4,443 nucleotides of DNA, taken from IMG/VR virus record IMGVR_UViG_2713896778_000022; one strand, given 5' to 3'. Positions within the stretch are counted from its first letter, which is position 1. Each line of letters opens with the position of its first letter. This DNA is from a virus. Its lineage: Duplodnaviria; Heunggongvirae; Uroviricota; Caudoviricetes. The position numbers and the translations under genes were made by a program. This document shows positions 1,541-4,443 of this stretch, piece by piece. The notes below the pieces were generated by a model. It did no database searches, was not told the origin of the DNA, and saw nothing but the letters and a program-made list of their open reading frames with translations.

Positions 1541-1562
1541 GCCACCGGAAGGTGGTTTTTTT
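1541..1562 (+). terminator. Rho-independent terminator (candidate tR')
   Basis: GCCACC-GGAA-GGTGG hairpin (5-6 bp GC-rich stem, GGAA loop) immediately followed by seven T (1556..1562). Confidence 0.6.
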
Positions 1563-1685: not shown

Positions 1686-2000
1686 ATGCTGAAACAGCAG
1701 GATATGACAGAAACCGCCAGAGTGGTGTTTAATGAATTAAGCGTCACCGAACCGGCGACAGTCGGGGAGATTGCGCAGAATACTTACCTTTCANNNNNNN
1801 NNNNNNNNNNNNNNNNNNNNNNNNNNNNNNNNNNNNNNNNNNNATTTGTGGTAAATGGGCGGCTGGTGGGTGTTAGGGGCACTCACCAGCCATCTGCTCA
1901 TGCGTTGGGGTCACAAGCAAACCTCAGGCCCATCTGCTTTGCGCAAAAGCGGTATGAGCCTATCAGAGAAGTGCTTATTGATCTATGGCTAATACTGTAA
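1686..2000 (+). CDS. small hypothetical protein, interrupted by an N-gap at 1794..1843; 3' end overlaps the methyltransferase start
   Basis: ATG at 1686 is preceded by AAAGGGAAA about 7 nt upstream. The first 36 codons read MLKQQDMTETARVVFNELSVTEPATVGEIAQNTYLS. After the gap only one frame stays open, ending at TAA 1998..2000, which overlaps the ATG at 1985. The ORF-track extension back to 1563 has no ribosome-binding site and overlaps the terminator, so I take 1686 as the start. Whether the part after the gap belongs to the same protein cannot be shown. Confidence 0.4.
   Translation: MLKQQDMTETARVVFNELSVTEPATVGEIAQNTYLSXXXXXXXXXXXXXXXXXFVVNGRLVGVRGTHQPSAHALGSQANLRPICFAQKRYEPIREVLIDLWLIL
1794..1843. 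other. run of 50 N (assembly gap or masked sequence) inside the small ORF
   Basis: Unbroken N characters. Confidence 0.95.
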
Positions 2001-3061
2001 AAATATCCAGTTGTGAGTTAATCAACGCCGACTGCCTGGAATTTATCCGGTCATTACCCGAAAATTCTGTTGACCTGATAGTCACGGACCCGCCGTACTT
2101 TAAAGTGAAGCCTGAGGGCTGGGATAACCAGTGGAAGGGCGACGATGATTACCTGAAGTGGCTGGACCAGTGTCTGGCGCAGTTCTGGCGGGTGCTGAAA
2201 CCTGCCGGAAGTCTTTACCTGTTCTGTGGTCATCGCCTGGCATCTGATATCGAAATCATGATGCGTGAACGCTTCAATGTGCTGAACCATATTATCTGGG
2301 CGAAGCCGTCCGGACGCTGGAACGGGTGCAACAAGGAAAGCCTGCGGGCGTATTTTCCGGCCACAGAACGCATTCTGTTCGCGGAACATTATCAGGGGCC
2401 GTATCGTCCGAAAGATGATGGCGATGAGGCGAAGGGCAGGGCACTGAAACAGCATGTGATGGCCCCGCTGATTTCTTACTTTCGTGATGCGCGTGCTGCT
2501 CTTGGGATAACGGCAAAACAGATTGCAGATGCCACAGGAAAGAAAAACATGGTGTCGCACTGGTTCAGTGCCAGTCAGTGGCAGCTACCGAACGAAAGCG
2601 ATTATCTGAAATTACAGTCGCTGTTTGCCCGGGTGGCAGAAGAGAAACATCAGCGGGGAGAACTGGAAAAGTCCCATTACCAACTGGTCAGCACATACAG
2701 TGAGCTGAACCGGCAGTATATGGAACTGCTGAGTGAATATAAAAATTTGCGGCGGTATTTCGGTGTGACGGTGCAGGTGCCGTACACCGATGTGTGGACG
2801 CATAAACCGGTGCAGTACTATCCAGGGAAACATCCGTGCGAAAAACCGGCAGAAATGCTGCGGCAGATAATCTGCGCGAGCAGTCGTCCGGGTGACCTGG
2901 TGGCGGATTTTTTCATGGGTTCTGGCTCAACCATAAAAGCAGCTATGGCGCTCGGGCGTCGTGCAACTGGTGTTGAACTGGAGGCAGAACGTTTTGCGCA
3001 GACCGTTAAGGAGATTAGTCACATCCTTACATGCTCAATTGATGACGGGAAGGATGGATAA
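1985..3061 (+). CDS. beta-class DNA methyltransferase (N6-adenine/N4-cytosine family; DPPY favours N6-adenine), orphan
   Basis: Intact 358-aa ORF. Catalytic motif IV, VTDPPYF, is at aa 33..39 (nt 2087..2098 encode DPPY). The AdoMet-binding motif I, FFMGSGST, is at aa 309..316 (from nt 2909). The order motif IV, then a long variable region, then motif I is the beta-class arrangement. Stop TAA at 3059..3061. No restriction endonuclease candidate is present in the window. Confidence 0.85.
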   Translation: MANTVKISSCELINADCLEFIRSLPENSVDLIVTDPPYFKVKPEGWDNQWKGDDDYLKWLDQCLAQFWRVLKPAGSLYLFCGHRLASDIEIMMRERFNVLNHIIWAKPSGRWNGCNKESLRAYFPATERILFAEHYQGPYRPKDDGDEAKGRALKQHVMAPLISYFRDARAALGITAKQIADATGKKNMVSHWFSASQWQLPNESDYLKLQSLFARVAEEKHQRGELEKSHYQLVSTYSELNRQYMELLSEYKNLRRYFGVTVQVPYTDVWTHKPVQYYPGKHPCEKPAEMLRQIICASSRPGDLVADFFMGSGSTIKAAMALGRRATGVELEAERFAQTVKEISHILTCSIDDGKDG

Positions 3062-3172
3062 AGATATGGTCAGTTCAGGCTGTGAAGCAAGTAGACAGAT
3101 AAGGCTGCAATAAAAACTGACAATAGTAAAATAGCTTTTTCCCAGGTAGTCATGAATACGATCTCTTAAAGC

Positions 3173-3192
3173 GCCCGCTGATACCAGCGGGC
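3173..3192. other. perfect GC-rich hairpin (8-bp stem, 4-nt loop) without a clean U-tract
   Basis: GCCCGCTG-ATAC-CAGCGGGC. On the + strand it is followed by AATACATA; on the - strand by GCTTTAAGAG. It lies about 110 nt downstream of the methyltransferase stop. It could be a weak terminator for either strand or an RNA stability or processing element. Confidence 0.3.
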
Positions 3193-4282
3193 AATACATA
3201 CTGGCATTAATGTTAAGTTCAGGGATAATTCATCGTATTTTGTGGTACGACGCTATCAATATTAATAAACAGTATTTTTCATGTAAAATTTCTGTTTTTT
3301 TTGATCTGATTCTCGTTTCCTGGGTTATGATGTTGTTGTGAACCATGCTGTTGAATGATAATGTTCGGGTATAAAATTGTTGCTGATATGTAGCGCAGTG
3401 AGCGGGTGGTATTTCTGTTGCTGAGTGTACGGATACAGTGCTTCCCTCCCTCAGCGGGGGGGCAGGTGTGCTGTGGTTTTAGAGACACCGGAAACGAGAA
3501 TGATGCGGGTTTGCTGGTGCCGGGATAGAGTCGCCGGAGGTCATGACATAGAGCAAAAAAGGAATGTGCATGCAAATACACACCTCTTCGGAGAGCTCTT
3601 CTTTATATGGATGAGCCTCAAGGTCAATAGTTTATCTGTTATGTATTCATATGTTGTTACTTATATAATCCATACGGGCATATCATCAGTACACACATAC
3701 TATTATGGCATTTTATTTTTGTTTTAACTGAATTCCCGGGGCACTCTTTTTGATTTCTGATAAGGAACCAGAATTTTCTGTTAAATGGTGTCACGTTGTA
3801 AATGGTTAATGGAAGCAGCTTATTATCCATAATCACACCTGAGTTAACAGGTGTGAGAATACTTCCGGGTGGCAGGAACACATCTGACTGATACCAGATT
3901 ATCAACTTTATTTTACACCATACAGTTGAAAACGTTATTCCGCTTGATGGGCATATCACTGTGTCAATAACTATCCATTCCATCTTTTAACCTTCTCGGT
4001 ACACATTGCTTTCGATTGTTTTGCTAAAAATCATAGTCAATAAATCAGTGTAACTCATTGATAAAGATCGTTTTCTTTGTCTTCCTGGGGGTTTCTTTTC
4101 TAATTTTGTATCACTTTGGTTCAAGTTGTTTCATTTTTTGTAATACAAATTAGCAGGATGAGCGGGAATATAAAAAAATCGGATGTTTTTGTAATGGATA
4201 TTATTTTTTGTAAAATAATGTATTTTTATTTAAATCTCTATCAGAAAAGAATTTATTGTTCCTTTATATGGTGGAAAAGGTC

Positions 4283-4443
4283 ATGGTATTTAAACACTAC
4301 GATGTGGTCAGGGCGGCATCGCCGTCAGACCTTGCTGATGCACTTGCGCAAAAAATTCGTGAAGGATGGCAACCATACGGTGGGCCGTTTTCTTCGTATA
4401 CGGATGATGGCGCAGCACTTATTCAGGCGATTGTCGCAGAAGG
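4283..4443 (+). CDS. small phage late-region protein (DUF1737-like), N-terminal 53 codons; 3' end lies outside the window
   Basis: ATG at 4283 is preceded by GGAAAAGG. The translation MVFKHYDVVRAASPSDLADALAQKIREGWQPYGGPFSSYTDDGAALIQAIVAE has the ..GW.PYG..dg..QA.V pattern I associate with the small DUF1737-type proteins found beside lambdoid lysis cassettes. The family name is from memory and not verified. Confidence 0.55.
   Translation, partial: MVFKHYDVVRAASPSDLADALAQKIREGWQPYGGPFSSYTDDGAALIQAIVAE

Follow-up and report, generated by a model that had tools for sequence, protein, structure and literature searches.

STnc100 is a multicopy small RNA (sRNA) of lambdoid prophages. EDL933 carries 11 copies, one of which has been verified by Northern blotting (PMC5331693), and in Stx2 phages there is a copy downstream of stx2B that overlaps with the Hfq-binding sRNA EcOnc27/sRNA103 (PMC12711010). 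The EPEC sRNAs PasD1 and PasD2 share ancestry with STnc100 (bioRxiv 10.64898/2026.05.13.724894; PMC8550237), and PasD is Hfq-dependent as judged by Northern blotting and RIL-seq (PMC8550237). Expressed, Hfq-associated transcripts are known for other copies of the family as well (PMC5331693, PMC12711010, PMC8550237). PasD1 and PasD2 (EPEC E2348/69; homologues of EcOnc13) constitute a sister branch of STnc100; the two are not linked by BLAST. Members of the family are Hfq-binding RNAs, as shown for EcOnc27 and PasD, and lambdoid prophages encode them in the moron region that follows the antiterminator gene and precedes the lysis genes; each gene has a sigma-70 promoter and an intrinsic terminator of its own.

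A precedent for degraded prophage sRNA genes that lack essential expression signals is provided by PasA-3, a variant of PasA without a terminator, which Zhu, Shabalina and Storz have suggested may be a pseudogene (bioRxiv 10.64898/2026.05.13.724894). PasA-3 is a member of an unrelated sRNA family, and the rest of its sequence is the same as in the functional gene; the copy described here, by contrast, is degraded throughout. That copy forms a G+C-rich island in the window (the whole 4443 nt stretch of DNA that was analysed). We consider it, with a probability of roughly 0.7, to be an eroded sRNA pseudogene of the STnc100/PasD family and not a new structured RNA.

Genomic setting of the island

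The window represents the late region of a lambdoid prophage of Escherichia coli. A prophage in the chromosome of E. coli O121 strain RM8352 matches positions 3062–4280 with 100% identity, as do other STEC and EPEC strains. The gene order, according to RefSeq, is DUF968, RusA, DUF1133, a small ORF, a DNA methyltransferase, iraM (on the minus strand), DUF6645, DUF1378, DUF826, holin, lysozyme and an Rz-like gene, and in that context the DUF1133 gene occupies the position of the late antiterminator (Q). The genes on either side of the island are as follows.

1985–3061: DNA methyltransferase (RefSeq annotation)
3657–3983, minus strand: iraM, anti-adapter protein IraM, 108 aa (RefSeq WP_001443281.1; ORF list)

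A G+C-rich, hairpin-dense island within an A+T-rich spacer had been pointed out in an earlier note on this DNA. The compositional difference is real, with G+C contents of 0.56–0.58 in 3401–3550 as compared with 0.28–0.39 in the flanks. The island lies in an accessory ('moron') segment of the lambdoid late operon, directly 3′ of the convergent iraM gene, whose stop codon is at 3657–3659.

The island was found in 29 of 5,426 complete E. coli genomes, with identities of at least 98.4% and with iraM adjoining in every case; window-type copies from IMG/VR and metagenomes were about 98–100% identical. The carriers of this type belong to serogroups O121, O111, O103 and O39. Sequenced phages (INPHARED, searched in near and distant modes) contained no island-like sequence. 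In O111:H8 strain 8E, homology to the window begins at 3040 and the genes upstream are different ones (a cytosine methyltransferase, a HEPN nuclease and DUF262), from which it follows that the island moves with iraM and not with the methyltransferase.

Several other elements of the window were observed. A clean intrinsic terminator, GCCACC-GGAA-GGTGG followed by T7, is situated at 1541–1562 (plus strand), approximately 100 nt 3′ of the DUF1133 (Q-position) gene, and is likely to be the tR′ of the late promoter region. In related phages, tR′ is the place of origin of short late RNAs of the StxS or 6S-like type. Both the RusA gene and the small ORF past the late terminator are partly masked, by N runs of 50 bases each (742–791 and 1794–1843). 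A perfect 8 bp G+C-rich palindrome, GCCCGCTG-ATAC-CAGCGGGC, is present at 3173–3192, about 110 nt beyond the methyltransferase stop codon; as minus-strand RNA it folds with –17.5 kcal/mol (z –3.4), and a good U tract follows on neither strand.

Relationship to the STnc100/PasD family

Searches of the window against Rfam gave chance-level matches only (P26, Trp_leader, mir-1994 and sR40), all far below their gathering scores, that to Trp_leader being attributable to the palindrome at 3173–3192. There was no match to STnc100 at E≤10 anywhere in the window, the gathering score of that family being 47 bits, and nothing credible, STnc100 included, when the 311 nt from 3330 to 3640 were searched alone at the same limit. 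ARAGORN found neither a tRNA nor a tmRNA.

The family becomes apparent at homologous loci. A search of IMG/VR with the IraM protein led to prophages whose IraM is 82%, 79% and 63% identical to that of the window. All of these have, just past the iraM stop codon and on the opposite strand, a canonical terminator (GCCCCTC-loop-GAGGGGC followed by a T run), with the motif GCATGGTGAATCCCCC some 150–180 nt upstream of it. The elements beside these divergent iraM alleles were identified by Rfam as STnc100 (RF02076), with scores of 83.5–140.9 bits. In loci L028–L031, bona fide STnc100 is present at the position and in the orientation of the window's island, convergent with iraM. The island shares with STnc100 its lambdoid late/moron niche and its orientation with the late operon, and the arrangement matches that of loci L028–L044.

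To this synteny can be added direct sequence comparison. A family profile was made from 139 copies gathered from IMG/VR through the 5′ motif, and its sole nhmmer match in the window was 3448–3602 (plus strand; E 1.4e-4, 12.6 bits), covering model positions 14–166 of 167. A covariance model of our own (R1; 22 diverse members, 34 consensus pairs, of which 8 show compensatory changes) matched best at 3440–3603 (plus strand), over model positions 1–173. In blastn searches with the island, 3504–3593 matched L177 (E 2e-7), 3553–3604 matched L149 (79% identity, E 5e-7) and 3492–3537 matched L162 (78% identity, E 1.4e-6); these closest relatives are of STnc100 types and not PasD. By nhmmer, blastn and the covariance model, homology to STnc100 members extends over the whole gene, including hairpin 1, a central segment (CGAGAAUGAyGCGGGUUU), the tail and the terminator position. 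G+C content is likewise similar, that of the relic being 0.54 within a family range of 0.47–0.60. The copy can be described as a core segment like that of L162 and L199 (CGAGAATGAyGCGGGTTT) joined to a tail like that of L119, L149 and L177 (AAAAAGrAATGTGCATGCAAA).

Taken together, homology and identical synteny establish, at the level of sequence comparison, that 3436–3605 of the plus strand descends from an STnc100/PasD-type sRNA gene; the homology statistics by themselves are modest (13 bits for the covariance model, 12.6 for nhmmer) and lean on the synteny. The features recognized on this basis are listed below.

3436–3605, plus strand: relic of an STnc100/PasD-family sRNA gene, from the family 5′ end to the terminator vestige (own covariance model, nhmmer, blastn, synteny)
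3402–3468, no strand: region bounded by the 7 nt direct repeats GCGGGTG (3402–3408) and GCAGGTG (3462–3468) (blastn against L004, alignment)
3444–3462, plus strand: vestige of hairpin 1, CCCUCCC-UCAGC-GGGGGGG, homologous to CCCCU-GUGCGG-AGGGG (alignments; –14.8 kcal/mol)
3456–3462, no strand: hypervariable poly-G tract, here G7 (multi-copy alignment)
3505–3532, plus strand: remnant of the central hairpin (GGGUUcaG...CugAACUC in the family), where conservation with L162-type copies is highest (blastn, covariance model)
3534–3547, plus strand: truncated CCGGG-AGGCA-CCCGG hairpin, then the mutated 3′ strand of the outer helix, UCAUGAC (alignments)
3553–3583, plus strand: 3′ tail module related to the tail of L119, L149 and L177 type (AAGAAAAAGAAUGUGCAUGCAAACAU) (blastn against L149, alignment)
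3584–3608, plus strand: degenerate terminator with a 4 bp CUCU/AGAG stem, UCGG loop and interrupted U tract (folding, alignments)
About 3555–3589, minus strand: hairpin followed by U6, candidate terminator of iraM (–11.8 kcal/mol, z –2.65)

Intermediates between the window type and intact copies were sought in IMG/VR, in the GTDB species representatives and in JGI metagenomes, and none was found in these collections. The scan of IMG/VR with GCGGGTTTGNTNGNNCCGGG returned window-type copies, L031-type copies and chance matches only. The GTDB representatives and JGI metagenomes were scanned with CGAGAATGANGCGGGTTT, a 17-base pattern that is too short for collections of that size; the matches were mostly due to chance, apart from a single copy of window type (99.4%) and some 30 intact copies of L162 type, those from metagenomes being 90–100% identical to one another. 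Matches of 20–30 bits to the covariance model at other loci were considered as intermediates and rejected, as they proved to be mostly phage tRNA genes with terminators, none of them window-like; one in this range, L094, is a truncated STnc100-like copy. The DNA preceding the relic (3062–3440) showed no detectable similarity by blastn or tblastn to DNA upstream of family members, and its interpretation as the remnant of a DUF3927 gene or of the family's upstream region was discarded.

The STnc100 family itself is modular, in that a nearly invariant 5′ core (GCAUGGUG...CACCAUGC) is joined to any of several 3′ tails and terminators, which are unrelated to one another and have been shuffled among copies; this pattern suggests that seeds are swapped by recombination. 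Two or three STnc100-like genes occur in tandem in L096 (3150–3792) and also in L105, L106, L115, L128, L162 and L165. The middle copy (e.g. L096 3374–3521, 42.5 bits) begins GAUGUGAUG, and its core ends CAUCACAU; it appears from these sequences to be a further sub-family, in which the closing helix has changed on both sides.

Retained and lost features of the copy

Against the covariance model, the window scored 13.0 bits, as compared with 77–169 for intact copies and 42–44 for PasD1 and PasD2. It retains 28 of 50 invariant columns, 49 of 80 nearly invariant columns and 20 of 34 pairs, where the lowest pair count among the family members is 30 of 34.

The motifs named in the earlier note were all found in place: CCCTCCC at 3444–3450, G7 at 3456–3462, GACACCGG at 3484–3491, CCGGAGGTC at 3534–3542, and CTCT-TCGG-AGAG at 3584–3595 followed by CTCTTCTTTATAT. 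Among the hairpins that they were proposed to form, only CCCUCCC/GGGGGGG is reasonably stable (–14.8 kcal/mol, z –1.8). It corresponds to the family's hairpin 1 (CCCCU-loop-AGGGG), with the length-variable G tract as its 3′ arm. On sequence grounds, the hairpins of that note are best taken as vestiges of hairpin 1 and of the family terminator.

The remaining helices are in a different state. The invariant 5′ motif GCAUGGUGAAUCC reads (A)CAGUGCUUCC in the window and its partner CACCAUGC reads UCAUGAC. As both strands are altered, the 8 bp closing helix would be unable to form; about four of its eight pairs are broken in the covariance model alignment, in columns that are invariant in the 22 family sequences. 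In the central hairpin (GCGGGUUUGCUGG...GGGAUAGAGUC), where columns 83/106 and 87/102 covary within the family, some pairs are kept and others broken in that alignment. The nearly invariant CCGGG-AGGCA-CCCGG reads CCGGAGGUCAUGAC, its 3′ arm having been lost through a gap of about 8 nt, and the columns of 3534–3547 are also invariant or nearly so across the 22 sequences.

The claim of a structured RNA holds, accordingly, only in part. Descent from a structured sRNA gene is borne out by the Rfam STnc100 matches at the same position in homologous loci, while most of the covarying helices are lost and the predicted folding energy is at the level of shuffled sequences. For 3360–3615, the minimum free energy was –77.7 kcal/mol, versus –76.6±4.5 for dinucleotide shuffles (z –0.24), which does not bear out the hairpin density, and the minus strand gave z +0.09. 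Unusual thermodynamic stability was therefore rejected, z being close to 0 on both strands.

The expression signals were compared in the same manner. The plus strand had been called correctly, as had the 3′ boundary, since the weak hairpin at 3584–3595 and the U-rich run after it (3584–3608) are homologous to a real intrinsic terminator of the family, GCCCCUC-UCCG-GAGGGGC-UUUUUU. Its standing as a terminator was not upheld: the stem has four pairs, as against 7–9 G+C-rich pairs in the family, with –2.3 kcal/mol (z –0.47), 69 of 200 shuffles were equally stable, the tail reads CUCUUCUUUAU, and a terminator scan of 3000–4443 was empty. The corresponding values for the L177 terminator are –18.4 kcal/mol, z –4.4 and U5. 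With regard to the promoter, family copies have TTGTCT-17-TTAAAA directly upstream of GCAUGGUG, the –10 element TTAAAA ending 7–8 nt before the start. When 3366–3435 of the window was set against a consensus of the DNA upstream of 33 family copies, no –10-like element (TG-n-TTAAAA) could be aligned. TTGTTG (3333–3338) and GATAAT (3357–3362), proposed as a promoter pair, are present with their 18 nt spacer; they match the consensus at 8 of 12 positions (TTGTTG at 3 of 6), which is below the threshold of the scan, and that scan reported no promoter-like site on the plus strand between 3290 and 4188. A structured RNA of about 240 nt delimited by this pair is likewise unsupported, as the family start GCAUGGUG aligns at about 3436, approximately 65 nt downstream of the start that such a promoter implies.

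The window thus differs from STnc100 in the absence of the GCAUGGUGAAUCC motif, the 8 bp closing helix, the 3′ arm of CCGGG-AGGCA-CCCGG and the –10 TTAAAA, in a terminator stem of 4 instead of 7–9 G+C-rich pairs, and in the gain of a slippage-prone G tract. With PasD, likewise a late-region prophage sRNA, it shares the absence of the CCGGG/CCCGG hairpin, the 3′ strand of the closing helix coming right after GGGAGG in PasD, much as in the window. In PasD, however, the 5′ end still reads GCAUGGUGAAUCC, the closing helix is preserved, and there are a TTGACT-17/18-TTAAAA promoter and a strong U8 terminator; the window possesses none of these, and both the PasD seed UGUGAG and the 5′ GCAUGGUGAAUCCUCC are missing from the window in alignments with L061 (2261–2433) and L062 (2158–2329). 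As the defining features tested for both were not found, the copy is not filed as a member of STnc100 or of PasD; it is a degenerate derivative that Rfam-based annotation misses.

Most simply, these observations can be accommodated if an ancestral STnc100-type gene beside iraM lost its expression signals and core fold. In this lineage, decay would have removed the –10 box, the 5′ motif and 8 bp closing helix, one arm of CCGGG/CCCGG and most of the terminator stem, and the relic would then have spread recently with the iraM moron among STEC and EPEC prophages. The island would be G+C-rich because it has kept the composition of an ancestral structured-RNA gene inside A+T-rich accessory DNA, and such a relic would account for that composition, for the two recognizable hairpins and for the weak 'terminator' with no new function. 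Judged by its sequence, the window copy would no longer give rise to a functional sRNA. A discrete transcript is probably not made from it in lysogens, and during lytic growth it would merely be read through within the late transcript. The odd compositional island is, in that event, explained with no new class of RNA, and the locus is a relic, unannotated and invisible to Rfam, of an sRNA family that is widespread in prophages, and is of use for annotation and for understanding how accessory sRNA genes die.

Some features run counter to decay. Preservation is fairly good in hairpin 1 and in the tail segment AAAAAGGAAUGUGCAUGCAAA, and the functional relative PasD also lacks the CCGGG/CCCGG hairpin. 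The identity of about 98–100% across several serogroups shows recent spread and not decay in progress, constraint and youth being inseparable in these data. It is conceivable, but improbable, that the island encodes a divergent sRNA that is still functional, forming a new branch of STnc100/PasD, driven from a new upstream promoter (TTGTTG-18-GATAAT or a TATAAA box near 3370), ending at the 3584–3595 hairpin and using the tail as its seed. Its strand and 3′ end agree with the family, hairpin 1 folds stably (–14.8 kcal/mol), the tail shares 79% identity with that of L149 type, and PasD demonstrates that the superfamily tolerates large remodelling, the loss of the CCGGG hairpin included (bioRxiv 10.64898/2026.05.13.724894). 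These points are outweighed by a promoter candidate that lies in A+T-rich DNA and matches 8 of 12 consensus positions unreported by the scan, by a terminator hairpin at chance level with an interrupted U tract, and by a folding energy no better than that of shuffles. In addition, complete genomes, IMG/VR and metagenomes yielded no diverged window-type relatives that might display constraint. If the copy is expressed, it would extend the STnc100/PasD superfamily by a third branch, one that is strongly remodelled; otherwise it is ordinary and would not surprise a specialist.

Variation between strains and the minus strand

The poly-G run is the only hypervariable site in the region, the copies, which come from different E. 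coli lineages, being otherwise approximately 99% identical. In 39 loci (some of which represent the same contig twice), its length was G6 in 6, G7 in 21, G8 in 2, G9 in 5, G10 in 1, G11 in 3 and G12 in 1; record lengths among the complete genomes are consistent with this. The tract aligns to an interrupted run in the family, GCGG(A/C/U)GGGGC (GCGGAGGGGC), and the window has G at the interrupting base. This alignment points to fusion of GG and GGGG into G7 through replacement of that base by G, the direction of the change being the part that we infer.

A second type of variant is a 60 nt deletion between the two 7 nt repeats, the first of which reads GCAGGTG in most other strains. The deletion removes hairpin 1 together with the G tract; its junction was seen in L004, L020, L024, L052 and L056, and O111:H8 strain 8E is among the carriers. 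In strain 2014C-3599, finally, IS600 is inserted at 3598–3600 (L003 4345–5501) with a 3 bp duplication, between the terminator vestige and iraM. That strains tolerate an indel-prone tract of G6–G12, a deletion of hairpin 1 and an IS600 insertion is supportive of decay and argues against a functional sRNA.

The changes in tract length (G6 to G12, in a background of about 99% identity) might also be viewed as the mark of a contingency switch, i.e. phase variation of something nearby. This is highly unlikely: the tract lies outside any conserved ORF, is not flanked by recognizable –35 and –10 elements, is situated 195 nt past the 3′ end of iraM and more than 800 nt from the start of DUF6645, and is wholly deleted in some prophages, while differences of ±1 could in part be homopolymer errors of long-read assemblies. 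Very doubtful as well is a remodelled sRNA of the superfamily whose 5′ hairpin, with its slippage-prone G6–G12 arm, would make structure, stability or target access dependent on the clone; if true, it would be a phase-variable prophage riboregulator linked to the RpoS-stabilizing iraM moron. The tract bears on coding capacity too. Open reading frames of 40–100 codons do exist in the island (3425–3727 and 3406–3528 on the plus strand, 3279–3581 on the minus strand), and a small protein could in principle be encoded there. All three contain the G tract, the length differences of which are not multiples of three, so that the reading frames are not maintained from strain to strain. GTG is the start codon in each case, one frame runs antisense into iraM, and none has a Pfam match at E≤1. 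A protein product is hardly credible on this evidence, and coding was rejected.

A reading that is compatible with the relic, and on its own merits rather unlikely, is that the right part of the island serves iraM, on the minus strand, as 3′ UTR and terminator. The minus-strand hairpin lies 68–102 nt beyond the iraM stop codon, is predicted to fold with –11.8 kcal/mol (z –2.65) and ends in U6. Moreover, at every prophage-borne iraM locus examined, the STnc100 terminator is located directly downstream of iraM, from which it may be reasoned that the convergent genes share one termination zone. On the other hand, the hairpin is built into an sRNA tail of L119/L177 type, its U tract is partly sequestered in a predicted stem, IS600 parts iraM from it in strain 2014C-3599, and iraM of K-12 has no such minus-strand element. 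Within the pseudogene reading, the hairpin and U6 may help to end iraM transcripts, according to the folding predictions, and this is the sole plausible residual role of the relic.

The comparison of iraM loci gave one further observation. Prophage alleles 63–82% identical to that of the window (L028–L044, IMG/VR) are consistently followed by a convergent, intact STnc100, prophage-borne iraM normally being accompanied by such a gene, with a termination zone common to both. A remnant of STnc100 was sought at the K-12 iraM locus, which shows no trace of one; the chromosomal gene there (L208, K-12 1211413–1212003) adjoins icdC and the icd terminator instead.
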